From: an uncultured archaeon
GTDB lineage: Archaea > Hadarchaeota > Hadarchaeia > Hadarchaeales > WYZ-LMO6
Direction: 5' to 3'
Length of the DNA stretch: 64,000 bases
Assembly (NCBI GenBank): GCA_938074535.1
Contig: CALJER010000015.1
Span: forward strand, 1,544 to 65,543
The notes under the pieces were generated by a model that saw only the letters and a list, made by a program, of their open reading frames with translations, searched no databases and had not been told where the DNA came from. The translations under genes and the position numbers were made by a program. This document shows positions 233-17,508 of the stretch, in pieces. The stretch's first letter is position 1; every line of letters starts with the position of its first letter.

Positions 233-248
233 CAAACTCTTTTGTAGA

Positions 249-1395: not shown

Positions 1396-2854
1396 GCGGG
1401 CTCTCCCCCTCCTCCATCAGCTTTAGGTGGGGCTCCAGCCTCCTCCTCATCACTCCCAAGAGAAGCCTCATCGCCATCCTCCTCATCCTGCTGTCCTTGA
1501 AGTGATCCCTGGCCAGCGCCCCTATCCACCTGAAGTCGTGCCTGAGGCAGGAGGCGTAGAGCTTCCAGTGCTCTCCCCTCATGTCCTTGGCCGTGAAAAA
1601 CTTCTCCTCCCTCAAGAAGCTCAGGGGCACGAAGAAGAGGGGGACGATCAGGGACTTGAACTCGGCCAGCCTCTCCACCAGCTCCCTCGTCTTTTCCACA
1701 TCCTCCCGCGTCTCGCCGGGAAGGCCCATCACGAGCGTGGAGCAGGGAACCCAGTTCTGGTCCGCCAGGATTTCGTGCGCCCTCATCACCACCTCGGGCC
1801 ACTCTTCCGGCTTGAAGGGGAGGGCCTTTCCTTTCATGTACTTCTCGATCAGGGAGGGGGAGCCCGTCTCTATGCCCATCTGGACCCCGAAGAAGGGCTT
1901 CTGCCTGGTGCCTATGCCCAGCAGCTCCGTGAGCTTCTGCACAAGGGAGGGGGCGGAGGCCACAGAGGCGAAGGCCGCATGGGAGGCGCTCACGTCCATC
2001 CCGGTTTTGGCCACTTCCCGGAAGAGGGCCATCACTTTCTCCTCCTCGGGCAGGATTCCCCTCGCCCCGTACCTGAGCACATCCTCCGCGTGGATCAGCA
2101 GGTGGTGGGCGGCCGCGTTCACCCTCACCTCCTCCCTTATCTTTTCCAGAGGGAGGGAGCGGAGGTAGCGCTGGGTGGGGACGCAGAACTTGCATCCCCT
2201 CCCGCACCCCCTGGCCACCTCCACTATCCCGTTCACGGTGGGGTTTTTGATGGCCGGGATTTTCTCCGGGGGGGTGGGCCCAGCCTCCACGATGGGGGGA
2301 AGGGGTTCTCCCCTTATCGCCCTGCGGAAGAGCTCGGAGGCCACGGTCTCCCCCTCCCCGAGCACCACGCAATCTATCCCGTACTTGGCCATCATCCTTC
2401 CCTCGGCCAGCTGCCAGGCCCCGGGCCCGCCGACGATCACCCTCAGGCCGGCCCTCCTGAGGATCCTCCGGCCGACCAGCTTCCTGAAGTGAAAGGCGGA
2501 GTAGGTCTCCTCTCCCGTCAGGCTGCTGAGGGTGGAAGAGGCCGGTCCCAGCCCGAGCGGATCGTTGGTGGTTATTCCCACGGCCCTGGTTCTCTCGTCC
2601 ACCACCTCCTCCAGGTGCTCGGGATGTCCCACCACCACGTCGAAGCCTTCCTCCAGCAGGACGGCCTCGATCTTCCTAGTTCCAGCGGGGGCGAAGAGCG
2701 CCACCCCCTTCCGGTGGGGAAGGGGGGGACAGAGGAAGAGGCGAAAGAGGGGGTCGGGCAGCAGCCTGGGGGCGCAGGCGGCGAAGCCCACGAACATGGA
2801 GCCCCCGTAGTCGGACATCAAAGTGCAATCAGCGGTCAGAACCACTTCCGGCAT
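1358..2854 (-). CDS. Radical SAM protein with N-terminal B12-binding-like domain (class B radical SAM).
   Basis: 498 aa. CGRGCKFC (CxxxCxxC) radical-SAM cluster motif preceded by a Rossmann-like B12-binding-type N-terminal region. A/T-rich aaatttttt element about 25 nt upstream of the start. Confidence 0.75.
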   Translation of the reverse strand: MPEVVLTADCTLMSDYGGSMFVGFAACAPRLLPDPLFRLFLCPPLPHRKGVALFAPAGTRKIEAVLLEEGFDVVVGHPEHLEEVVDERTRAVGITTNDPLGLGPASSTLSSLTGEETYSAFHFRKLVGRRILRRAGLRVIVGGPGAWQLAEGRMMAKYGIDCVVLGEGETVASELFRRAIRGEPLPPIVEAGPTPPEKIPAIKNPTVNGIVEVARGCGRGCKFCVPTQRYLRSLPLEKIREEVRVNAAAHHLLIHAEDVLRYGARGILPEEEKVMALFREVAKTGMDVSASHAAFASVASAPSLVQKLTELLGIGTRQKPFFGVQMGIETGSPSLIEKYMKGKALPFKPEEWPEVVMRAHEILADQNWVPCSTLVMGLPGETREDVEKTRELVERLAEFKSLIVPLFFVPLSFLREEKFFTAKDMRGEHWKLYASCLRHDFRWIGALARDHFKDSRMRRMAMRLLLGVMRRRLEPHLKLMEEGESPLRGGSSASPPRL

Positions 2855-3215
2855 CTATGCAAAAAATTTCGCAGAGAAGCTTAAAAGGATAGGCAGAAGG
2901 TCTGAGAAGGGCGGAGGTCTCCTTCCTCCTGCGTTTGCCTTCCACTGCTCGGCTCCTCCTTTTGGTGCCGGCCGGGGCAGGAAGGGAGCTCTCCATCCAC
3001 CACCTCAGGAGGAAGGTGGGGAGGTCGGAGAGGGCTCCGCCAGCATCCGGGATCCCTTTCGGGGATGGGACTCCCCAGGAGGAGGGTGGGGAGGACGGGG
3101 AAGGAGGGCATGTTTTTACTCCTTCGACAGGGACGAGTTCGCGGGGGGAGTGAGGAGGGTCCTGGAGGAGAGGAGAAGACGGGAGGGGGCTCGGGGAGCA
3201 CCTCGCTTAAGAACC

Positions 3216-4052
3216 TCAGCCCTCCAGCCCCTCAATGAGGGCGTGCAGGCTCCTGGCCAGGTTCTCCCCTATGTACCCACCCTCCAGCACCCCGAAGACC
3301 GGCTTCCCGTACTCTGCCAGCCTCTCCCCTATCCTGCGGAAGCCTTCCGGGGTGAGGCCCAGGGAGGAGAGGTCCCCGGCGTGGGAGTCGAAGCCCGCCG
3401 AGATCCCTACCACCTCGCACCTCTCCGCCCCCACCTTCTTCAGTCCCTTCTCCAGGCACCTGAGGTATTCCTCGTCCCCCACCTCGTCCAGCGGGATGTT
3501 CACGAAGTTGGGTCCCGACTCCCATCCCGTTCCCGGGTAGATGCCGCCCCTGTGCAGGGAGAGGAACCTGACCTTCGGGTCCCCCATGAAGATCTCCTGG
3601 GTGCCGTTCCCGTGGTGCCCGTCCACGTCCACGATCAGGGTGGGGAGATCCAGCTTTCTCACGGCCACCGCTATGTTGTTGAAGTAGCAGAAGCCCAGGG
3701 TGGGTGCTCCCAGCGCCAGCCCGTTCCTGCCTGCGTGGTGCCCCGGGGGGCGCATGAGGGAGAAGCCCTTTATTTCAGCCGCTTTGATGGCCCCTCCCGC
3801 GGCCAGCCTGGCGTACTCGTAGATGTTGGGATAGGCGGGGGTATCTGGGTCGAAGAAGTTCCCCCTTTTGATGATCTCCACGTATTTCTTGGAGTGCACC
3901 AGCAGGAGGTCCTCCTCGGTGGCAGGGCAGGGCTCCACGAACTCGTACCCCAGCCCCTTCAGGATCTCACGGGCCTTCCCCACCCTTCCAGGGTTTTCCA
4001 AATGGTAGGGATCGCCGTACTCCAGGCACTTGGGGGAGAAGACAAGCTTCAT
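3216..4052 (-). CDS. Histone deacetylase superfamily protein (AcuC / acetylpolyamine amidohydrolase-like), copy 1.
   Basis: 278 aa. HHAGRNG, DVDGHHGNGTQ, GFDSHAGD and GGY motifs of the arginase/deacetylase fold. Confidence 0.85.
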   Translation of the reverse strand: MKLVFSPKCLEYGDPYHLENPGRVGKAREILKGLGYEFVEPCPATEEDLLLVHSKKYVEIIKRGNFFDPDTPAYPNIYEYARLAAGGAIKAAEIKGFSLMRPPGHHAGRNGLALGAPTLGFCYFNNIAVAVRKLDLPTLIVDVDGHHGNGTQEIFMGDPKVRFLSLHRGGIYPGTGWESGPNFVNIPLDEVGDEEYLRCLEKGLKKVGAERCEVVGISAGFDSHAGDLSSLGLTPEGFRRIGERLAEYGKPVFGVLEGGYIGENLARSLHALIEGLEG

Positions 4053-4207
4053 CCTTTTTTTCTTCGGCGGCGCCGGTGAAAAGGCTTTTGCCCAAACCTG
4101 GGGGCGGCGGATGGCGGGTCCTTTTCCGGCTGCGGCGAGGGGTTGGGAGAATTTTTAAGACCAGTGCTCCAACCCTACGGCGGGGAAGAGTTTTGGTGAG
4201 GAAAGGG

Positions 4208-4657
4208 ATGCTCCTTTATTTCGTGACGGAGGGGATGAGGGTTCTGGTTGTGGGATCCGGCGCCATCGGGAGGAGAAAAATCTCCAAGTTGGTTGAGAGC
4301 GGAGCTGAGGTAACCGTGGTTACAAAAGATGATGCAAAAGGATTGGATGCTATGGGCGTTGAGGTCGAGAGAGGGGATGGGCTCGAGTATCTCTCGAGAA
4401 ATTTGGATCGCTTTGACATGATCGTCGCGGCCACAGACAGCAAAGAAATAAATTCAAAGATCTCAGAGCTGGCCATGCGCCACAGAAAGCTGGTGGTCTC
4501 TGTTACTTCTCATGAGGAGTGCAACGTGATGTTTCCCGCGGTGCTGGATTATAAAAAGTTTCAGATAGGCATCACGACGCATGGTCTGGATCCCAAACTC
4601 TCGAGAAAAATAAAGGAAAAGCTGTCACTGATGATAAGACCTGAAGAATTCTGTTGA
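4208..4657 (+). CDS. sirC: Precorrin-2 dehydrogenase / sirohydrochlorin-forming enzyme (SirC, CysG N-terminal domain-like).
   Basis: MRVLVVGSGAIGRRKISKLVESGAEVTVVT NAD-binding Rossmann motif typical of siroheme synthase N-domain. Convergent with cfbB. The listed ORF from 4076 has an implausible Arg-rich extension. Confidence 0.6.
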   Translation: MLLYFVTEGMRVLVVGSGAIGRRKISKLVESGAEVTVVTKDDAKGLDAMGVEVERGDGLEYLSRNLDRFDMIVAATDSKEINSKISELAMRHRKLVVSVTSHEECNVMFPAVLDYKKFQIGITTHGLDPKLSRKIKEKLSLMIRPEEFC

Positions 4658-4659
4658 GG

Positions 4660-6048
4660 TCACCTGTGAAAGTACTGGCTGCAAGCCGAAACGAACTTTG
4701 CAGGCACATCGGGGTTGGCTAGGTAGTGGAGGTGCGTGTACATCCCAACAGTCCTGTGGGCCGTAGCCCCGTCCCTCCCGTCCCTGATCCCCCTTCCCCT
4801 GAGTACATTAAAAGCGAACTCGCTCGAGAGATTTTCGATGTAAGAGTAGTGAAATTCGTGTCCCTTCAGGGTGCCCCCGGCCTCCGAGAGGGGATTTTCG
4901 GCTGTGGCCTCTAACTGGGCGTAACCCAGAGCCTTCGGTCTCTCAGAAAAATAGACATCACCATCAAAAACGCTCACCATCTTATGCTTTTTGCCCCCGT
5001 AGTTTATTGAGCTGCAAAGATACAACAGGCCACCGCCTTCCCCGACAACCGGCATTTCGTCCACGATTTTTTTGTAGAGGGAGTGCCGCAGCCGATGGTT
5101 TGCCTCAAGTTCGCTCGCAAAGATTTCAGGATACCCGCCGCCGATCAGAACTCCAGAGATTTCATTTTCGATTTCTCTGGTTGATAGGCTGTCTATCACG
5201 CGTATTTCGGCGCCAGCTTCTCTGAGCAGGACCAGGTTCTCGGGGTAGTAAAAGGAGAAGGGAAAGTCGATGAAGATTCCTATTTTCACTTTTTCGTTGA
5301 TCGCTGAGCCCCGTTGCTTGAGCAGCGGGCCCTGGCCGGCATGATCCTCGATCTCGGGGCATTGCGTCATTAGCTCAAGTAGCTTGTCGATATCCAAGGA
5401 GGGTTCGAGCAGCATAGCTGCCCTGTTTATTACTTCATCGATCTTCGGAAGCTCGCGGGGTGTTACGAGACCCCCATGCCGCTTTTTTATGCGTAGCTCA
5501 GGCGAACGGTAAAGCACACCCAGGACAGGTACTTTGGTATAGTGTTCGATCGCCTTTCTGAGTTTTTCTTCGTGTGCGGCATCCCTGACGTTGTTTAGGA
5601 TCACGCCGCCGATCCTCACCTCCCTGTCCATGGATTGGTAGCCTATTATCTGGGCGGCCACGCCCCTGGTCAAACTCCTGCAGTCGACAACCAAGACTAC
5701 GGGTGCGGAGAGGATTTTGGCGACATGCGCCGTGCTTCCCACATCCGCCACGGGAGACTCGCCTTCGTAAAGACCCCTCACCCCCTCCGCGACCGCGAAA
5801 TCGGCGCCCACACAGCCAGCCACGAAGGAGCGGCGTATGGTCTCCTCCCCCATCATCCAGGAGTCGAGAGTTCTGCAGGGCCTCCCGGAGGCCATACTTA
5901 GGTACATGGGATCGATGTAGTCCGGGCCTACTTTGAAGGGCTGGACTTTGAAGTTCTTGCTTTTCATTATTCTTAAAAGGGCAGCTGAGATCAGCGTCTT
6001 TCCCGAGCCGCTCGATGTTGCCGAGATCACAACTCTAGGAACTTTCAT
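4660..6048 (-). CDS. cfbB: Ni-sirohydrochlorin a,c-diamide synthase (CbiA/CobB-family amidotransferase).
   Basis: MKVPRVVISATSSGSGKTLISAALL P-loop plus C-terminal glutamine amidotransferase domain. Last gene of the cfb block. Start moved to the internal Met (6048) that overlaps the cfbC stop. Confidence 0.8.
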   Translation of the reverse strand: MKVPRVVISATSSGSGKTLISAALLRIMKSKNFKVQPFKVGPDYIDPMYLSMASGRPCRTLDSWMMGEETIRRSFVAGCVGADFAVAEGVRGLYEGESPVADVGSTAHVAKILSAPVVLVVDCRSLTRGVAAQIIGYQSMDREVRIGGVILNNVRDAAHEEKLRKAIEHYTKVPVLGVLYRSPELRIKKRHGGLVTPRELPKIDEVINRAAMLLEPSLDIDKLLELMTQCPEIEDHAGQGPLLKQRGSAINEKVKIGIFIDFPFSFYYPENLVLLREAGAEIRVIDSLSTREIENEISGVLIGGGYPEIFASELEANHRLRHSLYKKIVDEMPVVGEGGGLLYLCSSINYGGKKHKMVSVFDGDVYFSERPKALGYAQLEATAENPLSEAGGTLKGHEFHYSYIENLSSEFAFNVLRGRGIRDGRDGATAHRTVGMYTHLHYLANPDVPAKFVSACSQYFHR

Positions 6049-6859
6049 CGGAGCACCCGCAAGTCCGCGATTCCGCCGTGAGCAGCTGGAAGATCTCCTC
6101 CAGCTCTCTTGCGGAAAGCGGATCTGGGATCTTACCATCCTCCATCCTGAGGAGGGACAGCGATATGGATTTGACGAGGTGCGAGATGCCGGAGTTGGGC
6201 GAAAGCTCTATCACGGTCTTCCTTAATTTATCTGCCCACCTCAGCTCCTCCGAGTAGGGAAGGCTTCCGATGATCGGGATTCCCACCCTCTTCGAAAACT
6301 CTTCAACGTACCTCTTTCCGCGGGGCGTTGCCTTGTTGTACACAATACCGCAGGATGGTGCCTTGAGAGAGGAAAGTCCCAGACAGATGTTGTTCGCCGC
6401 GTATATGGACATGAACTCGTCGGAGGTGACGATGAGAACACTCTCCGCATATCCTTCTTTGACGACGATCGCAAGCCCGCCGCACAGGATATCCGCCGGC
6501 ACATCGAAGATTACAAAATCAAAGCTGCCGATGTCTAGTTTGCCCAGGAGGTGCCCAATTCCAACTATCAGCCCTCTGCCGGCGCATCCCACCCCCGGCT
6601 CAGGACCACCCACTTCAACACCGTAGACCCCAAACACTCCCCTAAAGAGAAAACTCTCGACGGGCGGGTTTTTGTTCGACCTCATCACCTCCAGCAGCGG
6701 GGTTACCCTCCTTCCGAGGATGTTCGTTGTTGAGTCTGCCTTTGGATCACATCCGACCAGCAGAGTTTTGAGATTCATTTCCCCGAGGGCCGCAGCTATG
6801 TTTGAGGCCAAAGTTGACTTTCCAATTCCCCCCTTTCCGTATATTGCCACGGATCTCAT
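6035..6859 (-). CDS. cfbC: Ni-sirohydrochlorin a,c-diamide reductive cyclase, NifH-like ATPase component.
   Basis: MRSVAIYGKGGIGKST P-loop and CGG/CAGRG NifH/BchL family motifs. ATG at 6859 sits immediately after the cfbD stop. No nifK/nifDK partner, but cfb partners are adjacent. Confidence 0.85.
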   Translation of the reverse strand: MRSVAIYGKGGIGKSTLASNIAAALGEMNLKTLLVGCDPKADSTTNILGRRVTPLLEVMRSNKNPPVESFLFRGVFGVYGVEVGGPEPGVGCAGRGLIVGIGHLLGKLDIGSFDFVIFDVPADILCGGLAIVVKEGYAESVLIVTSDEFMSIYAANNICLGLSSLKAPSCGIVYNKATPRGKRYVEEFSKRVGIPIIGSLPYSEELRWADKLRKTVIELSPNSGISHLVKSISLSLLRMEDGKIPDPLSARELEEIFQLLTAESRTCGCSDESS

Positions 6860-7941
6860 TGGGTTCCCCCTGCAAGCCCCCTGATGCTCTCGCCCAATAT
6901 TGATTTGCAAATTCTCCTGTTTCCCAGAGAGGCACTGTGGGCACCCTCCTCGTTGACCACATAATCATATCCCAAGGACTTCAGGTTCGAAGCGGCCCTC
7001 CTGCCGGCACTAACAGCCACCGTCCTCAGCTTGCCTTCAACGGCCACGGCATGTGGTATGCCCGAGATTATTGCTAGATCCGGACGGATGTCGAAGAGGA
7101 CTTCTCTTGCTCTTTCTCCCGAGATGGGGTACTCATCGAGGCCCCCCGTGATTACCTCCACCTCGATTCCCCGAGCGCTCAGCTCCTGGAGGATTTTTTC
7201 TGAGTAGGATCTTATCCTGGGAAGGCCAATTTTGGGGTCCAGGTTGGCAACGAAATGAACGCTTCCGCTTTTTCCAAATCCGGCATCGGCTAGGGCAAGG
7301 AAGAGGTCGGCGTAGAGAAAAGCAGTTTCCTTCTTGGCATTCAGGACGCATGCCACCTCACCTCCACCCTCGAGGGTTCGGAGTATCAGGGAGCCTACGG
7401 CGGCAGGATCGTCGCCGGGGCTACCGGGTATGTACTCTGCTCTAGCGGTACCCCTTGTCCTCTCCAAAAGAGCTGCCATCTCCAGCGCATGCTTCTGCCG
7501 GGAGTATTCTTCCCTGCTTACCAAACCCGCTTCCATGGCTTCTTTGAGGACCGCTACCGCTCCAAGAGTGTTATCTCCAGAGGCGCTGTGAATGCTACAG
7601 CATATCGCCTTTTTGATAACACCAGCTTCGGCGGCCGCCCTCCTGAGGTCCTCACCGATGATCATGCTGGCACAGGTACCAACGACGCCAATCAGCTTAG
7701 GATTGAAGAGCTCGTCTACTTTCCTCAGCGTCGCTGAAAGTTTTCTCTCCCCCCCGAATATCAATTCGTCTTCCGACATGGCGGTCGTCACTATCTTCAC
7801 CCCTTCTTTTTCAAGCAGCCTGGCTGGGCCGAAGCAGCAGCCGGAGGGGCCGTGCAGGACTATAACGTCTGCATCCAGATCCCTGAGGGTATACATAGCG
7901 GCAGCGATCGGGCTCGGTCTAGGATGCATTGCAGCGGACAT
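6856..7941 (-). CDS. cfbD: Ni-sirohydrochlorin a,c-diamide reductive cyclase, NifD/NflD-like component.
   Basis: 361 aa NifD/BchN-like protein (VIVLHGPSGCCFG...), too short for a true nitrogenase alpha chain. Sandwiched between cfbE and cfbC. Confidence 0.8.
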   Translation of the reverse strand: MSAAMHPRPSPIAAAMYTLRDLDADVIVLHGPSGCCFGPARLLEKEGVKIVTTAMSEDELIFGGERKLSATLRKVDELFNPKLIGVVGTCASMIIGEDLRRAAAEAGVIKKAICCSIHSASGDNTLGAVAVLKEAMEAGLVSREEYSRQKHALEMAALLERTRGTARAEYIPGSPGDDPAAVGSLILRTLEGGGEVACVLNAKKETAFLYADLFLALADAGFGKSGSVHFVANLDPKIGLPRIRSYSEKILQELSARGIEVEVITGGLDEYPISGERAREVLFDIRPDLAIISGIPHAVAVEGKLRTVAVSAGRRAASNLKSLGYDYVVNEEGAHSASLGNRRICKSILGESIRGLAGGTQ

Positions 7942-9229
7942 GCTCTTCCCTCTCTAGACGCAGGGTCGGGACCCTCGAGGCCCCAACGGGCCCCACCACA
8001 CTTTTCGATATCATCGATCGGAGGGCCTCGCCGAGTTCACCAAACAGGTAGACCTCTTCAAACGGGCTGGAGTTAATGACCTTTGCTAGTTCCACCAAGT
8101 TCACAGGCCCGCAGGTGGTCTTGAGCCTTCCGCCGATCTCCAGCCTGATCGGCGGTAGGACTTCAAGATAGTCTTTGATTGCTTTGTCCGCGGCTTTTTC
8201 ATTTATTGCTGGGCTCCTGTTCAGGATCAGAGGTCCCGAGGGGTCTTCTAAGACCATCTTTTTTGAGAAGGTTTCTGGGGGGATTTCCACTTTTTCCTCA
8301 GAAACACCAAAAAACTTTGCTATAGAAACCCCAACGAGGATGTTCTCCACATTTTGTCTGCCGATGGGCCCTTGGGCCTCGACCAGGGTTCTGGAATGGG
8401 TGGGGCCTTCCAAGGTCATGAAGCCCCGGAAGTTCGCAGTGAACTTGATGTAGCCAGCGCCGATGCATACCCCTTCCGCTGAGATCTCACAAGGTAGAGG
8501 ATGTGCAGAGAAGTACTGGACGTTTGAAACTCCCCTTAATAGAGGATCATCTGCATTGAGCAGAACGGTTGAATTTGGCTTTCTTTGTCTAACCATCGAC
8601 ATTTTCGCCGCAAGGGCAGAGGAGGAACCTTTTGCTATGGGATAGTTATCGTACACGTTCTTCAGGATTCCAAGATCGGCCATACCCGTCCCGCCCAGGG
8701 AAAGCTCGAAGATGGCAAGATCGGGATCCCTTGGACAGAGCTTCAGCGCTTTTATTATGTTAGCGGGAGTCGAGCTTGCGCTTTCTGACAGCACTCTCTC
8801 GCTCGCCCCCTTTATGAATTTTATACCATCGCTTGTCAGGCTCAGAATGGAGTAGCGGTCTCTGAGCAAGGCGGTTGCGCATCTGACAGCGGTCGTCTTC
8901 CCAAAGCTGCCCGTTATCTCCACCACGGGGAAGTGCACTTTACCGCAAGCCAGCATTCTCACCGCTTCGTGATGCGTTACAAGCCTATCCTTAAAGTCCG
9001 CAAACGACGAGGAGGGAAAGTGGACGGGGCTGACTATCAGGTCATATTTTGGGAGTTCGGAGGGATCCGGGACCTCACGCAGAATTTCCAGCTCTTTAGA
9101 ATATTCCTCACCTTCTGAGTCCTTAAGGGTCCTATAAACGTCGACGCACGTTACGGTGTCGCCCCGCTCGGTGAACGCCTCGGAGAGGGTCAGCCCGCCG
9201 TGGGTGGCATCTACAACGAGAACCTTCAA
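7919..9229 (-). CDS. cfbE: Coenzyme F430 synthetase (MurF/Mur-ligase-like).
   Basis: Mur ligase features (EITGSFGKTT P-loop, central and C-terminal Mur domains). Probable TTG start at 9229 overlapping the cfbA stop (TTGA). The listed ORF extends to 9508 only as a low-complexity N-terminal read-through. Confidence 0.75.
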   Translation of the reverse strand: MKVLVVDATHGGLTLSEAFTERGDTVTCVDVYRTLKDSEGEEYSKELEILREVPDPSELPKYDLIVSPVHFPSSSFADFKDRLVTHHEAVRMLACGKVHFPVVEITGSFGKTTAVRCATALLRDRYSILSLTSDGIKFIKGASERVLSESASSTPANIIKALKLCPRDPDLAIFELSLGGTGMADLGILKNVYDNYPIAKGSSSALAAKMSMVRQRKPNSTVLLNADDPLLRGVSNVQYFSAHPLPCEISAEGVCIGAGYIKFTANFRGFMTLEGPTHSRTLVEAQGPIGRQNVENILVGVSIAKFFGVSEEKVEIPPETFSKKMVLEDPSGPLILNRSPAINEKAADKAIKDYLEVLPPIRLEIGGRLKTTCGPVNLVELAKVINSSPFEEVYLFGELGEALRSMISKSVVGPVGASRVPTLRLEREEHVRCNAS

Positions 9230-9624
9230 GCTCTCAAAGCCTCCTTGATTCTGTCGTTGAGGATCTCCACTACTCGATCGTCCGCCCCTATGGGATCGCT
9301 GAGCACCACTTTGACCTTTTTTGTTGCAGCTTCGATCCTCCAAACCCTCGCTCCAGCGGGCATTCCCAAGATTTTTGGTATGTCTTGGTCGACGTGGGTT
9401 CCCCTGGTGAGAAAGACGGGCTGGATGATGAGCTCCTCTATCCCAGCGTTCAAGCTCTCTGAAATCACCTCCTGAAGGGAGGGTTTGTTCATTCGCATGA
9501 AAGCGCACCTAACATAGGGATGCTCGGCTTCAAGCTTTTTTGCAAAGTACTTTATAGCCCTCTTATTGTGTGGCTCCCTGCTTCCATGTCCTACCAGAAT
9601 TATTCCGATCTTTTTTGGCATCAT
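9226..9624 (-). CDS. cfbA: Sirohydrochlorin nickelochelatase (small CbiX-type).
   Basis: About 132 aa CbiX-small: KKIGIILVGHGSREP. Start overlaps the hemD stop (9621-9623). Confidence 0.8.
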   Translation of the reverse strand: MMPKKIGIILVGHGSREPHNKRAIKYFAKKLEAEHPYVRCAFMRMNKPSLQEVISESLNAGIEELIIQPVFLTRGTHVDQDIPKILGMPAGARVWRIEAATKKVKVVLSDPIGADDRVVEILNDRIKEALRA

Positions 9625-10367
9625 GCCGCCCCCAGGGAGGAGAGTACTCCCCACAGGGAAGGCTCTGGCGCTACGGAGGGCTCTATCCCAGATGATTTTA
9701 GAACTCTCGCCGTTTCCGGTCCGATTGCGATCACGTGGGTACTTTTAAGAAGCGATTGGAGCTTTCTTCTGGCTTTGAAGGGCAAAAAAGCTTGCATGAG
9801 CTCGAAGGAGGAACCGGAGGTGAAGACCACAAAATCTGCTCCGGTTCTAAGAGTTCTCAGAAATTTTTCGACGCCCTTTGGATCCACCACCGGCGAATAA
9901 ATCCGATACTCCTCGACGGGTATTCCTCCCTCAGAAAGGGCTCTGCGCATTAGATCATTTGCAAAGCTGCTTCTGAGCAAGGCGATCGATGAGAAGGGAT
10001 GCTCAGAGTGGTCGCTCAGGATTTCCTCGAGGAGCGCCTTGCTCGTGTATCTACAGGGCAACCTCACCTTGGTCAGGCCGAACTTCTCTAAAGAGGCCTT
10101 AGTTGAGGGTCCGACGGCGTAGAGCCTCATCTCCGATAAGCTGCGGATAATTTTTTTGGAGGGATTGACCACTCTTAGAGACCTCGGACTCAAAAATACG
10201 GCGGAGTCGTGGCGCTGATGGGATAGATTCTCTTTCAGTCTCAGAATCTCCTCCCTCTTGGGCAGAAGCCTTATGGTGCTTATCCTAAGGGGTCTGCAGC
10301 CGTATTTTTGAAAAGGAGAAGGGTCAAAAGGAGACAACGATGTTAACACAACCTTTCTGCATCTCAT
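9621..10367 (-). CDS. hemD: Uroporphyrinogen-III synthase.
   Basis: 248 aa HemD-like two-lobe protein between cobA and cfbA. Start overlaps the cobA stop. Confidence 0.65.
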   Translation of the reverse strand: MRCRKVVLTSLSPFDPSPFQKYGCRPLRISTIRLLPKREEILRLKENLSHQRHDSAVFLSPRSLRVVNPSKKIIRSLSEMRLYAVGPSTKASLEKFGLTKVRLPCRYTSKALLEEILSDHSEHPFSSIALLRSSFANDLMRRALSEGGIPVEEYRIYSPVVDPKGVEKFLRTLRTGADFVVFTSGSSFELMQAFLPFKARRKLQSLLKSTHVIAIGPETARVLKSSGIEPSVAPEPSLWGVLSSLGAA

Positions 10368-11077
10368 CGGAGGAACACCTCCGCGACGCGCCCTATTACC
10401 AGGACGCCAGGAGCTTTTTCCCTTCGTGAGGTATTCAAGAGATCCTTGACGCGGATGAGCTCTTTCCTGACGCGAGAACCGGTGGAGGTTATGATTGCTC
10501 CAGGGGTTTCAGGATCAATTCCGCCCTCAATGAGGTTCCTGGCCACAAAGGAAAGGTTCCTCATTGACATGAGGAGAACCAACGTTCCGGGGAACTTGGC
10601 ATGCCTCTTCAGATACTCCCCTTCGTCCTCGCTACCCGCCAAGCTCCCACTCAGGATGACGACGGAGGAGGAAACTCCGCGCATGGTAAGCGGGATTCTT
10701 GCTAGCGTCGGCAGCGCAACTGCCGAGGTGAGGCCGGGCACCACTTCCACCTCTATTCCCTCTGCCTCGAGGGCCTGGAGCTCTTCGCCACCTCTGCCAA
10801 ACACGAAAGGGTCGCCGCTTTTCAACCGAACAACACAAAGCCCCTCCCTTGCAAAGTTTTTCATCAAGTCAACGATCTCCCGCTGTTTTTCCGGGCCCTC
10901 TCCGGGCTCTTTTCCCACATAGATGATTTTCGCCCCCTTCTTGGCTATATTTAGAATACTCTCGTCCACAAGACGGTCGTGGAGTATTACATCCGCTTCC
11001 GAGATTATCCTGTGAGCCCTTAGGGTGAGATTATCGATTCCAAGAACACCGGCGCCAACCAGATAGACTCTACCCTT
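10364..11077 (-). CDS. cobA: Uroporphyrinogen-III C-methyltransferase (SUMT; precorrin-2 forming).
   Basis: GRVYLVGAGVLGIDNLTLRA, VVRLKSGDPFVFGRGGEE and PGLTSA motifs of TP-methylase family. GTG start at 11077, so the listed N-terminal extension is rejected. Confidence 0.85.
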   Translation of the reverse strand, partial: KGRVYLVGAGVLGIDNLTLRAHRIISEADVILHDRLVDESILNIAKKGAKIIYVGKEPGEGPEKQREIVDLMKNFAREGLCVVRLKSGDPFVFGRGGEELQALEAEGIEVEVVPGLTSAVALPTLARIPLTMRGVSSSVVILSGSLAGSEDEGEYLKRHAKFPGTLVLLMSMRNLSFVARNLIEGGIDPETPGAIITSTGSRVRKELIRVKDLLNTSRREKAPGVLVIGRVAEVFLR

Positions 11078-11987
11078 CACGGAACTCCCTCCAGAACCAC
11101 TCCAGCTCGCGGTTGTTGAGGACGAGTTCAGCGACCCTCCTTCCGGTATCTTCGGGAGCCCCCCTTGGGAACCTGAATTCGAAAATTCTGAAATTTGACC
11201 CGTCTGCAGCGTAAAAACCGCACACAATTTTTACGGATTCGCCTTCGACCCGCGCCGTAAATCCGATGGGTGCCGAGCAACCAGATCTCATGGCCTTCAG
11301 GAAAGACCTCTCGATCGATACTTCTTCCATAGCTTCCGGCGAATTTATCAGCTGGACCAAAGATTTAACATCCGAGTCATCGCTCCTCGCTGTTATGGCA
11401 AGCGCACCCTGACCCGGGCTTGTGGGGAAGCGCTCAATGGGCATGCGCTCCCATTTCCCCCCGAGCCCAAGTCTGATCAGAGCAGCTTCTGCGACCACTA
11501 TGCCGTCGTATTTTCCTTCCCTCAGGCGTTTAAGTCTCGTATCTACGTTGCCCCTCAAATGTGATATCTCGAGGTCCCCTCTGAAACATTTGAGCTGTGC
11601 TGCTCTTCTCGGGCTGCTGGTTCCGATGATTGCTCCTTTGGGCATTGAACTGAGTGGTGAGCCCTTACGAGAGATGAATGCATCGCACGGAGAGATCCTC
11701 TCCGGAACTGCTACGACGGAGACTCCTGGTGGGAGTGAGGTTGGCACGTCTTTGAGACTGTGGACCGCGAGGTCAACATCGCCCCTCAGAAGGGCTTCGT
11801 CGATCTCCCTCTCAAAGGTTCCGCTGCCCATCTCTCTTGCTGCTAAGCTGTTCAGTTCATCTCCGGAAGTCTTTATCTTAACAATGGCAAAGTTGAAATC
11901 GCTCAAGGATTGCAATCTCTTGATGACGTGCTCGGTTTGGATGAGTGCCAACCTGCTTCCTCTACTTCCAACCCTGAGAGTTCTCAA
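11070..11987 (-). CDS. hemC: Porphobilinogen deaminase (hydroxymethylbilane synthase).
   Basis: LRVGSRGSRLALIQTEHV N-terminus and dipyrromethane cofactor Cys region. TTG start at 11987 directly after the hemL stop. Confidence 0.85.
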   Translation of the reverse strand: MRTLRVGSRGSRLALIQTEHVIKRLQSLSDFNFAIVKIKTSGDELNSLAAREMGSGTFEREIDEALLRGDVDLAVHSLKDVPTSLPPGVSVVAVPERISPCDAFISRKGSPLSSMPKGAIIGTSSPRRAAQLKCFRGDLEISHLRGNVDTRLKRLREGKYDGIVVAEAALIRLGLGGKWERMPIERFPTSPGQGALAITARSDDSDVKSLVQLINSPEAMEEVSIERSFLKAMRSGCSAPIGFTARVEGESVKIVCGFYAADGSNFRIFEFRFPRGAPEDTGRRVAELVLNNRELEWFWREFREG

Positions 11988-13234
11988 CCAGACCACCCAC
12001 CAGCGATAGCGGAAGAAAAAACCTCTGCTGTCTTTTGCAGATCTTCTTCGGTGTGAGCCACGGATAGAAAGCAGCACTCAAACTGGGAGGGCGGTAAGAA
12101 GACGCCCCCCTCCAGCAGGAGAGCTTGTAACTTCAAAAATCTATTTGTATCACATTTTCTGGCATCTTCAGCATTTCTCAGGCGGTTCTGCGTCAGAAAA
12201 AGCGTGAAGATCGAGCCCATCCTGTTTATCTGAGCGGGGATTCCGGCATCCTCGAGAAGATCCTCCAGGGCAGAACACAGACGCTCGGTCTTAGATTCCA
12301 GCTCAGCGTACACAGAGTCCCTGAGTCTCCTCACCACCGACAGGCCCGCAGAGGTGGCCACAGGGCTTCCGTTGAACGTTCCCGCGTTGTACACTCTGCC
12401 GGCTGGAGCAACCATTTCCATTAGCTCCCTCCTGCCTCCAAAGGCGCCGATGGGGAAGCCCCCCCCTATTATCTTTCCGAGCAAGGTTATGTCGGGCCTC
12501 AGGCCGAAGAGTTGCTGTGCTCCCCCCTTAGAGAGGCGGAATCCCGTAATAACTTCGTCGAAGATCAGGAGTGCTCCAGCTTCATCGCACGCTCTCCTGA
12601 GCTCTCTCAGAAAGCCTTTTTCTGGCGGGATCAATCCCACATTGCCCATTACAGGTTCCACTATAACACAGGCGACGCTCTCGTCAACGATATCTAAGGC
12701 CTCGAAGTCGTTGAAGGGTATGACTTTGGTTTTGTCGAGAAGATCACCCGGTATCCCTTCGCTGATGGGCGATTTGCTGGATTCAACACCATTCACTAAA
12801 AGTGAGTCCACCGCTCCGTGGTAGCAACCATCGAACTTGACGACCACCTCTCTTTTGGTAAAGGCCCTGCACAGCCTGATGGCGTTCGTAGCTGCCTCCC
12901 CTCCGGAGTTGACAAACCTAATCATCTCTATCGAGGGAACTGATCGGATGATCTCTTCGGCCAACTCCAGTTCGGCTAGGTGAGGTGTTCCAAAGAGAGT
13001 CCCCCTGCGCACCTGCTCATGAACTGCCTCGATCAAAAAATCTGGGGAATGACCAAAGATAAGAGGGCCGTAGGCCATGCAGAAATCGATGAGTTCTCTT
13101 CCGTCTTCAGTTATGAGGCGGGATCCCTTGGCTGAGGAGGTAAAGAACGGGTAGGGTTTGAAAAACCTAACCGGGCTGTTCACGCCGCCGGGGAAGACCC
13201 TTTTACTTCGAAGGAACAGGTCTTCGGATTTCAT
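11984..13234 (-). CDS. hemL: Glutamate-1-semialdehyde 2,1-aminomutase.
   Basis: 416 aa class-III aminotransferase; LIFDEVITGFR, VFPGGVNSPVR motifs. Confidence 0.9.
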   Translation of the reverse strand: MKSEDLFLRSKRVFPGGVNSPVRFFKPYPFFTSSAKGSRLITEDGRELIDFCMAYGPLIFGHSPDFLIEAVHEQVRRGTLFGTPHLAELELAEEIIRSVPSIEMIRFVNSGGEAATNAIRLCRAFTKREVVVKFDGCYHGAVDSLLVNGVESSKSPISEGIPGDLLDKTKVIPFNDFEALDIVDESVACVIVEPVMGNVGLIPPEKGFLRELRRACDEAGALLIFDEVITGFRLSKGGAQQLFGLRPDITLLGKIIGGGFPIGAFGGRRELMEMVAPAGRVYNAGTFNGSPVATSAGLSVVRRLRDSVYAELESKTERLCSALEDLLEDAGIPAQINRMGSIFTLFLTQNRLRNAEDARKCDTNRFLKLQALLLEGGVFLPPSQFECCFLSVAHTEEDLQKTAEVFSSAIAGGWSG

Positions 13235-14202
13235 GACTGTTCTTCCCTTAAGGCCTTTACAACCTCGGGAGCGTAGTACGATATTATGATGTCTGCTCCC
13301 GCCCTCTTTATCGCGGTGAGAGCTTCTAGAAAAACCCCTCTCTCGTCTGTGTCAGTGCTTTTGCAGTATTCCTTGAGCATAACGTACTCCCCACTCACTT
13401 GATACGCCGCCAGTGGGCAAGTCAAAATTCTTCTGAGCTCGCTGATGACATCGAGGTACGGCATGGCAGGTTTGACCATCACCATATCCGCCCCCTCCTG
13501 TATGTCCTGGAGAGCTTCCTTAACGGCTTCCCTCCTATTCCTGAAGTCCATCTGGTACGAAGAACGGTCGCCGAAAGCCGGGGCGGAAGACGCGACCTCT
13601 CTGAAGGGGGAGTACAAAAAGGATCTGAACTTGGCGGAGTAGGACATTATGCCCACATCCTCAAAACCACCTTCGTCTAGAGCGCTCCTTATCGCCGACA
13701 CCTGACCATCTGCCATAGCCGAGGGAGCAACGATGTCAGCCCCGGCTTCGGCGTGGCTAACCGCTATCCTGGACAGTATTGAAAGGGTTTTGTTCCTGTG
13801 AATCCTACTTCCTTCGAGTATACCGCAATGACCGTGGTCAGTGTACTGACAGAGGCAAACATCTGTGAGGATGTTAACAGGGGGCAGGGACGCCTTAATA
13901 GCTCTTATCGCTCTCTGGACCACTCCGTCGCCGCTGTAAGCATGAGATCCCAGGGAGTCTTTCGATGAGGGTACACCAAAGATGAGAAAGGAACGGAGGC
14001 CTGAGGCTATGTACCCCGACAGGTACTCCACAAGGCCAGAGAGGGGCACCTTTTCCATACCGCCCCAGCGGGATCTCTCAATGTCGCCAGTCTCTTTGAC
14101 AAAGATGGGATAGATGAAGTTGTGGGGAGCCAAGGCGGTCTCAGAGACGAGGTCCCTCAATATCTTGTTGCGCCTAAGCCTGGATGTGATTGTTTTTTTC
14201 AT
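13231..14202 (-). CDS. hemB: Porphobilinogen synthase (delta-aminolevulinate dehydratase).
   Basis: 323 aa; active-site lysines and metal-site region (VMVKPAMPYLDV...). Overlaps hemL start and hemA stop. Confidence 0.9.
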   Translation of the reverse strand: MKKTITSRLRRNKILRDLVSETALAPHNFIYPIFVKETGDIERSRWGGMEKVPLSGLVEYLSGYIASGLRSFLIFGVPSSKDSLGSHAYSGDGVVQRAIRAIKASLPPVNILTDVCLCQYTDHGHCGILEGSRIHRNKTLSILSRIAVSHAEAGADIVAPSAMADGQVSAIRSALDEGGFEDVGIMSYSAKFRSFLYSPFREVASSAPAFGDRSSYQMDFRNRREAVKEALQDIQEGADMVMVKPAMPYLDVISELRRILTCPLAAYQVSGEYVMLKEYCKSTDTDERGVFLEALTAIKRAGADIIISYYAPEVVKALREEQS

Positions 14203-15383
14203 TCAAAACCCTCCGACTTTGCTCCGGAGTTTGCTATGGAGAAGATGATATCACGCATAAAGGCATAGGTGAACTCCTCGATGACCTTTTTCTGGTCCTC
14301 TGTGAAAGCACACTTTCTGAAGGCGAAGTCGACGGCCTCTCTTCTCTTAACTTCAGCCCAACGCATCAGCATTTCAAAATTCGTTTTCCTGTCCCCCAAC
14401 TTTAGCCTCCCGATCAAAGCCCTCAGCGAGTCCTCGATAATCCTTTCAGCTTCTTTTACAGCTTTTTTCCTAACTCTGAGGTTGTTTTTCGCGATACTGC
14501 TTATGAGATCGAAATCAATCAGTTCTACTCCTCCAACATGCTTTATTCCTTCATCAACGCCTCTTGGGTTCGAAACGTCCAATATCAAAAGACCATTCAA
14601 TTTCAGGCCCTCCAAATCCTCCTTTTTGAGGATGGGATGGGGGGAGGAGGTGGCGCAGACGACGGCATCGGCATCGGCGATAACTTCTTTAAGCCCGTCG
14701 AAGTGCACGGCTCTTCCCCCTACTTCACTCGCGAGACGTTCAGCTCTTGAGTAGGTTCGATTTGCCACAAAGATGGTCACGGTTCCCTTGCGGGGCACGG
14801 ATTTTGCGACCATGCTTCCTATCCTGCCGGCACCGATTATGACCAGCTTCCTTCCCTCCAGGGACCCAAGCTTTTCGGTTATGATTTTTATGACCACATT
14901 CCCCAGCGAAATCGAGCCTTTGGAGATGGAGGTTTCGCGCCTTACAACTCCGCCGCAATTTATGGCTGCGCTGAAGACCGATTCCATGGTTGATTTAGCA
15001 GTTCCCAAAATTTTTGCTCGCTCTAAGCTCTCTCGAATCTGATGCAGGATCTCTGTCTCGCCAACTATTACTGACTCCAGTCCCGCGGCCAGATAAAAAA
15101 GGTGGCGGACAGCGTCATAGCCCTCAAAAAGTTCCGCGTACGGCTCAAGTGGGTACGCGCTGTTGGTAGAGTTTCTTAAGAATTCTTTGAGCAGTTCCCC
15201 GCTCACGTTTGAACCGGAAGCGTAGATCTCCACTCTGTGGCAAGTTTGAACTATAACGCACTCCTCTGCTCCTTCCTTCTTAAGTTGAATTAATGCTGAT
15301 TGGGGGTCGGTCAGGGTGAAACTTTCCAACACTCGAATTGGTGCCTTTTTGTGGTTGAGCGTTAAACAGTATATGGGAATCAT
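14199..15383 (-). CDS. hemA: Glutamyl-tRNA reductase.
   Basis: HKKAPIRVLE and CHRVEIY catalytic Cys motif, then a GAGRIG NADPH-binding domain. ATG at 15383 chosen over the listed 15437 extension. Confidence 0.85.
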   Translation of the reverse strand: MIPIYCLTLNHKKAPIRVLESFTLTDPQSALIQLKKEGAEECVIVQTCHRVEIYASGSNVSGELLKEFLRNSTNSAYPLEPYAELFEGYDAVRHLFYLAAGLESVIVGETEILHQIRESLERAKILGTAKSTMESVFSAAINCGGVVRRETSISKGSISLGNVVIKIITEKLGSLEGRKLVIIGAGRIGSMVAKSVPRKGTVTIFVANRTYSRAERLASEVGGRAVHFDGLKEVIADADAVVCATSSPHPILKKEDLEGLKLNGLLILDVSNPRGVDEGIKHVGGVELIDFDLISSIAKNNLRVRKKAVKEAERIIEDSLRALIGRLKLGDRKTNFEMLMRWAEVKRREAVDFAFRKCAFTEDQKKVIEEFTYAFMRDIIFSIANSGAKSEGFE

Positions 15384-15763
15384 CGATCTCAACATGGTCA
15401 AGTTTGAATTTATTCTTTCTTGTTTCATATGAAACAAAAAAGTGAAGGGATCGAGCCAATGAAATGAACGTTTGTACGAGGAGGCTTTATTGGCCGATCA
15501 GCTTGCCGACCGACCCCTGTCTTGCAAAGTGTCTTCCCCCCGGCTCGCGGAGCCCTTCCGGGTGCCCCTTCCCGCGCACATTACCGCCTCCCTTCTCCAC
15601 GCAGCACCCTCTCCGCCGCCCCCCTCAGTCTCGCACAGGTATCCCACCAGGATCTCGTCCATGCTGGTGCCCCCAGCTGGGTGTCCCCGCTGGTGCTCTT
15701 CACCCCGACCCCTCCCCTTCCCGGGAGGAAAGCTTCCGCCCCGGGCCTCTCCCCCTTGGTGGA

Positions 15764-15840
15764 TGGCGGGCCCGTCGGGATTCGAACCCGAGTTGCAGGC
15801 TCCGCAGGCCTGTGTCTTATCCAGGCTAGACCACGGGCCC
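15764..15840 (-). tRNA. tRNA-Arg (anticodon GCG), CCA encoded.
   Basis: Reverse complement GGGCCCGTGGTCTAGCCTGGATAAGACACAGGCCTGCGGAGCCTGCAACTCGGGTTCGAATCCCGACGGGCCCGCCA folds as a cloverleaf (7-bp acceptor, GTTCGAATC T-loop, anticodon loop CTGCGGA). tattaat TATA-like element about 25 nt upstream on its strand. Confidence 0.85.
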
Positions 15841-15871
15841 TCCCTACTTCTTCCGGGGGGAGGATTAATAG

Positions 15872-16357
15872 ATGGCGAGCGGAGGGAGAGGTTCCGGGGC
15901 CGGGAGGGGGATCGCGGGGATGACCCGCGCCTTCGGGGGGGCGACGAGGGAGCTGGGTCCGGGGAAGAAGGTGCTCTTCCCGGGTTCAGAGGCCGTCTGT
16001 CTTCCTTTCGCCGAGCTGCCGGCGTACGCCTGCAGGGACCTGGGGCACTCCTTCTACTTCGCCCCCGGGGGGAAAGCCGGGGAAGGCGGTGGAGCTGAGG
16101 TACAGGTCGCCCCACGGCTTTCAGACCGGCAGGAGGCTCAGGCCGGGTAGGGCGGATGTTCTGGTGGTGATGGGTGGCCTGGCCCTCCCCGGAAGCTCGG
16201 TGGGGCCGGGGAGGTGAGGAGGCTCGCCCCCTCCCTCCTGAAAAAGGGGGGAAGGGTGGCGGGCTTCATGGGCATCCTGGAGGGGGAGGGATGGGAGAAG
16301 GAACTGGAGTTCGATTTCCTCCCGTACGCGCGGGCGGAGAGGGTGAGGGTGAAGTGA
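15872..16357 (+). pseudogene. Probable frameshifted gene, or sequence errors in G-runs. A conserved-looking protein is split over three frames.
   Basis: Frame 1 (15872-16150) ...KKVLFPGSEAVCLPFAELPAYACRDLGHSFYFAPGG. Frame 2 ADVLVVMGGLALPGS. Frame 3 ...EVRRLAPSLLKKGGRVAGFMGILEGEGWEKELEFDFLPYARAERVRVK*. Protein-like sequence continues across frame changes at homopolymeric G tracts. Confidence 0.3.
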
Positions 16358-16998
16358 TCAGCCCTTTCCTTCCAGCGCCCTCTTCACCCTCGCCACGCTC
16401 TCCTCCACCTCCACCTCCCCTTCAAAGGAGACCGTTCTGAGGATCCCCCTGCGGGCGTAGAAGTCCAGCAGGGGCTTGGTCTGCCTGACGTACTCCTCCA
16501 GCCTCCTCCTGATCACCTCCGGCTTGTCGTCCTCCCTCTGGTAGAGCTCCCCCCCGCACCGGTCGCAGACCCCGGGTTCACGGGGTGGCATGGAGACCAG
16601 GTTGTAGATGGCCCCGCACTTCCTGCAGATCCTGCGGGTGGAGAGCCTTTTCACGATCACCTCCTCCTTCACGTCCAGGTTGAGCACCAGCTCGGGGGGG
16701 GAGAGCTTCTCCAGGGTCTCGGCCTGGAGGATCGTCCTGGGGAAGCCGTCCAGGATGAACCCCTTCGCGCAGTCCGGCTGGGAGAGCCTTTCCTTCATGA
16801 GGCTGATCACCTCCTCCTCCGGGCCCAGCAGCCCCTTCCCCACATACTCCCCCAGCCTCTTCCCCAGGGGGGTTCCCTTCTTGATCTCCTCCCGTATGAG
16901 GTCCCCCGTGGCTATGTGGGGTATCCCGTACTCCTGCGAGAGCCTTTTTCCGTAGGTACCCTTTCCCGCCCCCGGGGGGCCGAAGAGCACCAGCTTCA
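16358..16998 (-). CDS. adk: Adenylate kinase (archaeal type with zinc-ribbon lid).
   Basis: MKLVLFGPPGAGKGT P-loop; CRKCG...CDRCG lid cysteines. The listed ORF to 17407 is an upstream read-through. Confidence 0.9.
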
Positions 16999-17134
16999 TG
17001 GGATGCCTCCAGTCCTTCCTCCTGGGGGAACGGATTTTAATCCTTTTGTGAAAGGAAGAGGGGCGCGATGAGGAGAGGGGCTCTGAGGGGTGATGAGGAT
17101 GTTGAGTGCCGAGCGCTCCGAATGATTTTAAAAG

Positions 17135-17416: not shown

Positions 17417-17462
17417 GCACCCGAATCCGTCTGGCCAGCGTTCTGGTCGGGTTAGCCCAGCT

Positions 17463-17480: not shown

Positions 17481-17508
17481 CATTTTTCCACTGTAGAGGG
17501 TCGACTCC

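Follow-up and report, generated by a model that had tools for sequence, protein, structure and literature searches.

An island of coenzyme F430 genes beside the CCA end of tRNA-Arg in a Hadarchaeales archaeon

The 64,000 nucleotides analysed here (the window; part of contig CALJER010000015.1 from an uncultured Hadarchaeales archaeon of a hot spring) contain a block of twelve genes for tetrapyrrole and coenzyme F430 biosynthesis next to a tRNA-Arg(GCG) gene. The block lies in an insertion of 11,676 bp (4088–15763), which is absent from the same site in three contigs of related archaea (L012, L013 and L014). An earlier note, made from the letters of the window alone, had proposed an integrated island abutting the 3' end of the tRNA-Arg gene. 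Empty sites, composition and synteny bear this out, and we have little doubt that the block is an acquired island that was inserted at the tRNA end.

Genes and composition of the block

Genes were assigned with NCBIfam and Pfam models and by comparison with related clusters, mostly those of Methanomethylicaceae (contigs L002–L007, discussed below). Nearest to the tRNA-Arg gene, on the minus strand, lies hemA for glutamyl-tRNA reductase (14199–15383; Pfam GlutR_N and Shikimate_DH; 65% identity to L002; start MIPIYCL set by alignment). It is followed on the same strand by hemB for porphobilinogen synthase (13231–14202; NF006762, 409.5 bits with a cut-off of 297; 77% to L003), hemL for glutamate-1-semialdehyde aminomutase (11984–13234; TIGR00713, 529.9 bits, cut-off 527.3), hemC for hydroxymethylbilane synthase (11070–11996; TIGR00212, 299.6 bits, cut-off 164), sirA/cobA for uroporphyrinogen-III C-methyltransferase (10364–11080; TIGR01469, 230 bits, cut-off 185) and hemD for uroporphyrinogen-III synthase (9621–10367; Pfam HEM4, 2.5e-35; 61% to L002). 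The cfb genes continue in this orientation with cfbA for a small CbiX-type Ni-chelatase (9226–9624), which matches in tblastn, at 57%, the CbiX gene found in the same place in L002, L003 and L007. Next come cfbE for coenzyme F430 synthase (7919–9229, with a TTG start at 9229; NCBIfam F430_CfbE, 231.2 bits, cut-off 250; 60% to L002), cfbD for methanogenesis marker 13 (6856–7941; TIGR03282, 430.9 bits, cut-off 268.4; 75% to the Methanomethylicaceae protein P0002), cfbC for a NifH-like reductase subunit (6035–6859; NCBIfam F430_CfbC, 3e-79, below the cut-off; 69% to L002) and cfbB for Ni-sirohydrochlorin a,c-diamide synthase. The latter spans 4660–6048, the start coordinate being approximate, and matches NCBIfam F430_CfbB with 5e-142 and 473.8 bits, below the exception cut-off of 560 (66% to L002). 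On the plus strand, sirC for precorrin-2 dehydrogenase (4208–4657) matches NCBIfam cysG_Nterm with 73.6 bits (cut-off 62.3) and Pfam NAD_binding_7, and is 70% identical to L002 at the amino-acid level. Its 5' region (4148–4207, +) contains a TATA-like element, ATTTTTAAG, at 4151–4159, a putative sirC promoter, and the last ~35 nt of this region align to the Methanomethylicaceae sirC leader.

The strict NCBIfam cut-offs were passed by CfbD, HemL, HemB, HemC, SirA and SirC. For CfbB, CfbC and CfbE the best matches are the F430 models, yet the scores are under the cut-offs; hence these assignments lean also on orthology and synteny. Alignments of all five cfb genes to the Methanomethylicaceae cluster are full-length and show no internal stop; since the block genes in general align completely with homologues and lack internal stop codons, the cassette looks functional. 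All seven genes for sirohydrochlorin supply (hemA, hemL, hemB, hemC, hemD, sirA and sirC) were identified. By these assignments the block is predicted to encode each step from glutamyl-tRNA to coenzyme F430. No F430-dependent enzyme (Mcr or Acr) was found within the 64-kb window.

The block differs in composition from everything around it. From about 4.0 to 15.5 kb the GC content in 1-kb windows is 0.48–0.57, with a sharp break to 0.60–0.68 in the rest of the window. The GC content at third codon positions (GC3) of the 12 block genes (0.55–0.65, mean 0.602) has zero overlap with that of the 23 flanking genes (0.74–0.92, mean 0.874, standard deviation 0.044), and flank genes in L012 have a GC3 of 0.879. 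In the comparison that also covered codon usage, the island has a GC3 of 0.605 (maximum 0.655) and the host one of 0.872 (minimum 0.744). The contrast of a low-GC block and GC-rich flanks, which the earlier note had taken from sampled lines, is thus confirmed by sliding-window GC and GC3. The tRNA-Arg(GCG) gene, target of the insertion, is located on the minus strand at 15764–15840 as originally described; ARAGORN and Rfam find it intact, with an encoded CCA. It is identical in 77/77 positions to its counterparts in L012, L013, L014 and a further relative, L008.

Empty sites and donor lineage

The empty sites were found by searching public genomes and metagenomes for the exact tRNA-Arg sequence, which gave three contigs from two sister lineages. 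L012 belongs to Candidatus Hadarchaeales isolate JZ-2_201705_bins_146 and has a GC content of 0.64. L013 and L014 are Joint Genome Institute (JGI) metagenome contigs of the second lineage; they are 97–99% identical to L008, part of contig SRR27730044_2223, and stem from the same species. Positions 1–1131 of L012 align to window positions 16882–15764 and positions 1143–5274 to window positions 4087–1, both at ~86%. In all three contigs the CCA of the tRNA-Arg gene is followed by a spacer of 10–11 nt, G(A/T)ACAAA(A)CGG, and then by the upstream region of a gene of the histone deacetylase (HDAC) family; in L013 and L014 this spacer is GTACAAACGG, 10 nt long and conserved. This adjacency of tRNA-Arg and HDAC gene means that the window carries an insertion, whose boundaries as set by synteny lie between 4087 and 4088 on the left and between 15763 and 15764 on the right. 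The right boundary is the CCA end of the tRNA-Arg gene. Relatives without the block therefore have the tRNA-Arg gene next to the HDAC flank, which is the arrangement that the earlier note had suggested looking for. The same relatives dispose of the alternative that codon bias of biosynthetic genes causes the low GC content, because they lack the block at the site.

The window is closer to L012 (~86%) than to L013 and L014 (~75–79%). Since both sister lineages share the empty state, a single insertion in the window lineage is the parsimonious solution, and this insertion postdates the split of the window lineage from the JZ-2 bins_146 lineage.

Where the block came from is indicated by its closest relatives. 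When 5.8 billion protein clusters were searched with CfbD, the highest-ranking matches came from Methanomethylicia (Verstraetearchaeota), methanogens of a phylum other than that of the host, at 64–75% identity; only the window's own protein was closer. The contigs that encode the 75% relative are metagenome-assembled genomes of Methanomethylicaceae (L002–L007). The 12-gene order and orientation is identical in these contigs and in L018 (CfbD 74%), and 12/12 window proteins are 57–77% identical to the set of L002. In a neighbour-joining tree, the window CfbD is nested in the Methanomethylicia clade, while Methanosuratincola falls outside. Of the Hem and Cfb phylogenies that the earlier note had in mind, one part is thereby supplied: CfbD groups with Methanomethylicia, in a tree that covers CfbD only. 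In Methanomethylicaceae the cluster has about the GC content of its flanks (0.45 vs 0.44), and the whole island in the window has 0.53 compared with 0.44–0.45 in the sampled members of this family.

A perfect 18-nt palindrome, TTGTTTCATATGAAACAA, is located ~40 nt upstream of hemA (15420–15437). Alignment with the donor-lineage clusters shows it to be invariant between the island, L002 (~2494–2511), L003 and L018; hence the native 5' control region travelled with the cassette. The palindrome may act as an operator for a tetrapyrrole/F430 (perhaps nickel) regulon. A related copy, GTTTCTTATGAAAC, occurs in the spacer between sirC and an ABC-transporter gene in L002 and L007. The claim that F430 capacity was acquired as a cassette has held, as the gene set is complete, colinear with the Methanomethylicia cluster and, for CfbD, nested there. 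It is highly probable that the donor belonged to Methanomethylicales (Thermoproteota) or stood near them.

The surroundings of the cluster in Methanomethylicaceae deserve mention. A tRNA-Glu(TTC) gene (L002 2305–2382) lies ~150 nt upstream of hemA, the substrate of whose product is Glu-tRNA. L002 and L003/L006 are 99% identical over 18 kb and diverge at position 2369 of L002, 14 nt before the end of the tRNA-Glu gene. Of this tRNA end, L003 (~1010–1040) seems to retain no more than a brief, imperfect resemblance, judged by eye at ~10/13 nt, and the DNA in front of it is richer in GC (0.54–0.66 vs 0.45). The donor cluster, too, may thus have an integration hot spot as its neighbour.

On the host side, the window AtpA has all its top matches in Hadarchaeota, among them a Candidatus Hadarchaeales protein with 92% identity. 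The same contig carries the A-type ATPase operon, a ribosomal-protein/SecY operon, RpoD, TFB and further core genes, with GC3 of the host type. Since such genes surround the block, it lies within a core chromosomal region and not on a doubtful bin fragment. The left flank is formed by the HDAC-family gene (3216–4052, minus strand; Pfam Hist_deacetyl, 3.6e-53; host-like GC3), which has ~86% nucleotide identity to L012, where the tRNA-Arg gene adjoins it. Its upstream spacer (4053–4087) is host-derived and conserved in the empty sites; in blastn, homology to the relatives ends at 4087. A second HDAC-family paralogue is present at 33990–35159 (minus strand) and is the copy kept beside an M16 peptidase gene in L011. 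On the right, a DUF2124 homologue (15872–16357, plus strand), recognised by comparison with the DUF2124 protein of L008, is frameshifted at a G-run. The frameshift coincides with a C5G6 run near 16060–16072, and the same split (76 + 47 amino acids) occurs in L019, an independently assembled Logan contig, so this homologue may be a real pseudogene. Adenylate kinase follows (16358–16996, minus strand; Pfam ADK), with the A-type ATPase operon next to it, in synteny with L008, L009, L010 and L012. Further away, at 39000–42500, the window has a second, milder GC dip (0.57–0.58) with genes for an alpha/beta hydrolase, a MaoC dehydratase and one protein without a Pfam match. GC3 there is host-like (0.77–0.85), and the dip appears to reflect amino-acid composition, not foreign DNA.

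Integration hot spot, junctions and mode of entry

The tRNA-Arg end is an integration hot spot. L008, whose AtpA is 92% identical to that of the window, shares the gene order of the window from the ATPase operon down to 15764, to the nucleotide, and departs from it beyond this point; its homology to L013 and L014 stops at the same CCA. After this CCA, L008 has a tyrosine-recombinase gene (11349–12082), which is frameshifted as assembled and spread over three reading frames, due to either decay to a pseudogene or assembly errors. The integrase frame is open back into the 3' half of the tRNA. The conceptual protein has 70 homologues named site-specific integrase or integrase, several of them with PF00589, from Hadarchaeum, Bathyarchaeia, Nitrososphaeria and Methanomethylicaceae. 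These homologues, and not Pfam, identify the gene: a PDB sequence search with the fragment gave no match, and Pfam gave only two weak sub-threshold matches, none to an integrase. L015 (Candidatus Hadarchaeum, 9365–9500) has a related integrase after the CCA of a different, intron-bearing tRNA; this tRNA-like gene has a long intron-like insert and was missed by ARAGORN. After the CCA, GACTTTTGGGTTCAAAAC in L015 matches ACTTTTGGGTTCGGAAC in L008. An element-end motif, ACTTTTGGGTTC, is common to both after CCA-(G), and the integrase reads away from the tRNA. This shared sequence looks like the conserved element end of the L008/L015 integrase family. The two insertions demonstrate that such elements integrate precisely at tRNA CCA ends in these archaea, tRNA-Arg included. 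L010, which stems from another run, breaks off precisely where the tRNA-Arg gene has its 3' end, and this break suggests population heterogeneity at the site. In viral and proviral contigs neither cfb genes nor the L008 integrase family were found. An integrase match and a CfbD match on contigs of equal length (10169) turned out to belong to separate contigs.

Both ends of the insertion are GC-rich, non-coding and foreign to the donor cluster. The left terminal piece (4088–4147, 72% GC) has no similarity to the donor-cluster spacer; the right one (15481–15763, 68% GC) is unlike the donor-cluster flank and has no relative that we could find. 15438–15763 has no coding signal and no Rfam match, the adjoining tRNA being all that Rfam recognised. 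A structured RNA in 15481–15763 was considered and rejected on the missing Rfam match and fold z-scores of -1.4 and +0.6. These ends may be remains of a vehicle. The earlier note had thought of a decayed remnant in the ~320-bp GC-rich right piece; no similarity was detected there to the integrase family that occupies tRNA-Arg in relatives, the one family against which the non-coding DNA of the window was tested. Tblastx against the L008 integrase region, six-frame translation and a hidden Markov model (HMM) of the family were all negative for the GC-rich ends, and the positive control was strong, the HMM scoring the L008 integrase at 5e-62.

The att-like repeat described in the earlier note is real and well placed. 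The proximal copy, GGTGGATGGCGGGCCC, spans the right junction (15758–15773, plus strand) and consists of 6 nt of the insert followed by CCA, discriminator and 6 acceptor bases of the tRNA. The distal copy, GGCGGATGGCGGGTCC, a candidate attR core, is located in the HDAC/sirC spacer (4053–4207) at the GC transition (4106–4121, plus strand). The copies agree in 14/16 positions and share the exact 10-mer GGATGGCGGG, just as originally reported; the candidate att core within the repeat is CCCGCCATCC. In tRNA orientation the proximal junction reads GGGCCCGCCA directly followed by TCCACC, and at the distal end GGACCCGCCATCCGCC is separated from the host flank by 16 nt. Orientation and placement fit what is expected of att sites. 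A direct match of 14/16 within +/-40–60 nt of both synteny-set junctions has P=0.0016–0.0024 by shuffling and P=0.011–0.027 against random pairs of real window sequence, and a local alignment of the two junction regions (140 x 208 nt) gives P=0.04; at <=2 mismatches, 0.18 matches are expected by chance per window. The position of the repeat near both boundaries is thus suggestive, not decisive, and the repeat is at most a candidate att site, being short, imperfect and off the boundary, with a spacer that does not match.

A further short match was noticed at the inner edge of the GC-rich right piece. There, GTACAAACGT (15468–15477, minus strand) agrees in 9/10 positions with the spacer GTACAAACGG of the empty sites and is the sole such match in the window, where ~1 of this quality is expected per 64 kb. 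It may be a chance match, or could hint at a composite two-step insertion. The L012 version of the spacer has no match near the window junctions.

Taken together, the data are best explained by a horizontally acquired island at a tRNA hot spot that probably entered with an integrative element. The gene cluster, native to Methanomethylicales, would have become cargo of such an element. A tyrosine integrase would then have recombined it into the chromosome with the 3' CCA end of tRNA-Arg(GCG) as attB, splitting the ancestral adjacency of tRNA-Arg and HDAC gene. The GC-rich ends (4088–4147 and 15481–15763) and the 16-nt repeat would be leftovers of the vehicle, whose integrase was presumably lost later or came from elsewhere in trans, so that the island would now be fixed, have no integrase and resemble a cis-mobilisable element. 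For the site-specific step as such, we lean towards an integrase, because an integrase-bearing insertion occupies the same nucleotide in L008.

Several observations weigh against this explanation. Neither the island nor the rest of the 64 kb contains a gene for an integrase, an excisionase or a transposase, and all open reading frames of the block are hem or cfb genes. The absence of a recognisable integrase from the block, already remarked on in the earlier note, was confirmed with NCBIfam, Pfam and the family HMM; built from 48 archaeal integrases of one family, this HMM found no match in six frames of the whole window (best E=1.8). The motif ACTTTTGGGTTC is absent from the window junctions, its only match in the window, with 2 mismatches, being inside hemA. 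The repeat is only 16 nt long, has two mismatches and starts 18 nt inside the left boundary; when the tRNA region is aligned with the left end, the match stays confined to the 16-mer even if gaps are allowed. The 12 kb in question contain 39 direct-repeat families of similar quality, and the exact 10-mer GGATGGCGGG also occurs, by chance, at 19412 and 34999. The 22 nt between repeat and host flank, TCCGCCGCCCCCAGGTTTGGGC, are unlike the spacer of the empty sites. With the repeat off the boundary and the spacer mismatched, a simple attL/attR model needs extra assumptions. Furthermore, the nearest sampled donor is only ~75% identical and the codon usage of the island is intermediate, with correlations of relative synonymous codon usage of r=0.82 to the host and 0.50 to Methanomethylicaceae. 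Consequently the event was not very recent or the donor has not been sampled; the intermediate composition is in keeping with partial amelioration, or with a donor that is unsampled and itself of intermediate GC content. Finally, 15438–15675 has no independent assembly coverage.

Many of these points would also be compatible with entry of the same acquired island by a route that is not site-specific, for example illegitimate or microhomology recombination of DNA taken up, or homologous replacement from an island-bearing Hadarchaeales strain. The repeat would then be chance or a microhomology footprint, and the tRNA end merely intergenic DNA that tolerates insertions. This course is favoured by the lack of an integrase or remnant in the window (for the family tested), by a short and imperfect repeat among abundant comparable ones, for which conservative nulls give only P 0.01–0.04, by its position away from the boundary with the empty-site spacer missing, and by the absence of the L008/L015 element-end motif at the junctions. 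We nevertheless consider it the less probable course, since the right boundary is the tRNA CCA end to the nucleotide and the same junction as that of the L008 integrase insertion, the repeat is oriented and placed like att sites, and the GC-rich, non-donor ends suggest a vehicle.

It is very improbable that the block was already present in the ancestor of this Hadarchaeales clade and that the lineages of L012 and of L013/L014 each lost it precisely, for example by excision, with gene-specific constraint as the cause of its low GC content. Integrative elements are able to excise precisely, and the codon usage of the island correlates fairly well with the host (r=0.82). However, at least two independent precise losses that leave the conserved spacer would be required. 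The GC3 values of 0.60 and 0.87 without overlap across 12 genes argue against ancestral presence, as do a CfbD that falls within Methanomethylicia, a gene order and palindrome identical to that lineage, and the lack of any relative above 75% identity among 5.8 billion protein clusters.

An assembly or binning chimera, in which a shared tRNA sequence would have linked a Methanomethylicia fragment to a Hadarchaeales contig, can be practically dismissed: tRNAs are classic chimeric join points and 15438–15675 lacks independent coverage, but the left junction has no shared repeat and is nevertheless reproduced in Logan contig L001, L019 reproduces the junction of tRNA and GC-rich piece, both junctions map to one point in the empty sites, as they would not in a chimera, and the island has a GC content of 0.53 versus 0.44–0.45 in Methanomethylicaceae. 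Both Logan contigs stem from run ERR9287632. L001 equals window 1–5040 at 99.98%, covers the left junction and reaches into cfbB; L019 equals window 15675–19159 at 99.9% and covers the right join. Exact-protein matches of CfbD, adenylate kinase and HemB in further assemblies were not found.

Returning to entry by an integrative element, one may ask whether the hem-cfb operon is, or recently was, itself the cargo of an integrase element that travels from tRNA gene to tRNA gene, even between phyla, among archaea that share a hot spring. We regard this extension as speculative and rather unlikely. It is prompted by the location of the donor cluster ~150 nt from a tRNA-Glu gene with a strain-variable 3' end and a possible tRNA-end remnant (L002 vs L003), and by the occurrence of the L008 integrase family in both Hadarchaeum and Methanomethylicaceae. 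If the operon had been captured by an aberrant excision of the kind seen in specialised transduction and had then integrated at tRNA-Arg, the GC-rich, non-donor ends and the repeat would be accounted for. If the operon does move in this way, a gain of Mcr/Acr metabolism would need only two transferable modules.

Relation to known systems

Methane and alkane metabolism by Mcr/Acr is patchily distributed in Archaea, and the share of this pattern that is due to transfer is debated; Mcr and Acr are useless without F430. The island indicates that the whole route from glutamyl-tRNA to F430 can cross phyla as one 11.7-kb piece, comprising 12 genes and the palindrome as a candidate control element. 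Its landing site is a recombination hot spot in the core chromosome, for which sister lineages have kept the states before and after. As a concrete, datable transfer it can calibrate Cfb/Mcr reconciliations, and the locus lends itself to testing whether it is the supply of the cofactor that limits how far alkane and methane metabolism spread.

In a limited search of the literature on F430 and cfb, we came across no account of this cassette, of the donor or of the insertion site. Horizontal transfers of Cfb genes as a pathway have been reported at shallow tree positions, for Archaeoglobi WYZ-LMO2 and Helarchaeales (PMC9982363), and Hadarchaeia are considered to have gained their Acr by horizontal transfer (PMC11057702, PMC10811742). 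Mcr-bearing Hadesarchaea are known from Jinze springs (PMC6783470). Like these cases, the island represents machinery for the Mcr/Acr cofactor or enzyme that crosses into a non-TACK lineage. Here, in contrast, the transfer is resolved at nucleotide level with empty sites, extends to the complete tetrapyrrole pathway upstream (hemA-D, sirA, sirC), all within a single piece of 11.7 kb, and has a Hadarchaeales lineage as recipient and Methanomethylicales as donor clade.

The native hemABLC-sirA-hemD-cfbAEDCB/sirC cluster of Methanomethylicaceae (L002–L007, GCA_038880995.1 and others) is the closest counterpart, with the same order and orientation of 12 genes, 57–77% identity and the hemA palindrome. 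It differs in having the GC content of its own genome (0.45) and in being flanked by tRNA-Glu/tRNA-Leu and a peptide/nickel-type ABC transporter, which stayed behind in the transfer.

Elements flanked by att sites but devoid of a recombination module are known as cis-mobilisable elements (CIMEs) from Streptococcus thermophilus. The island resembles CIMEs and decayed islands in having candidate att-like repeats at both ends and cargo only, with no integrase, and related integrase elements at the same site in relatives could act in trans. Unlike in CIMEs, its att sites are candidates only, and no tandem partner element is present in this segment.

Islands and integrative elements associated with tRNA genes and moved by tyrosine recombinases occur in bacteria and archaea, for instance as TKV-type elements of Thermococcales and as pathogenicity or metabolic islands. 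With these the window island shares the insertion at an intact tRNA 3' end, the deviant composition, the presence or absence between close relatives and a coherent metabolic cargo, as well as a short copy of the tRNA end, in direct orientation, on the opposite side and, in a relative, an integrase insertion at the same tRNA end. It differs from them by the lack of an integrase or mobility gene and by a repeat of 16 nt that has two mismatches and is not flush. Islands linked to tRNA genes are thus a classic category; what is unusual in the present case is that the boundaries are defined to the nucleotide, empty sites are available and the donor clade has been identified.

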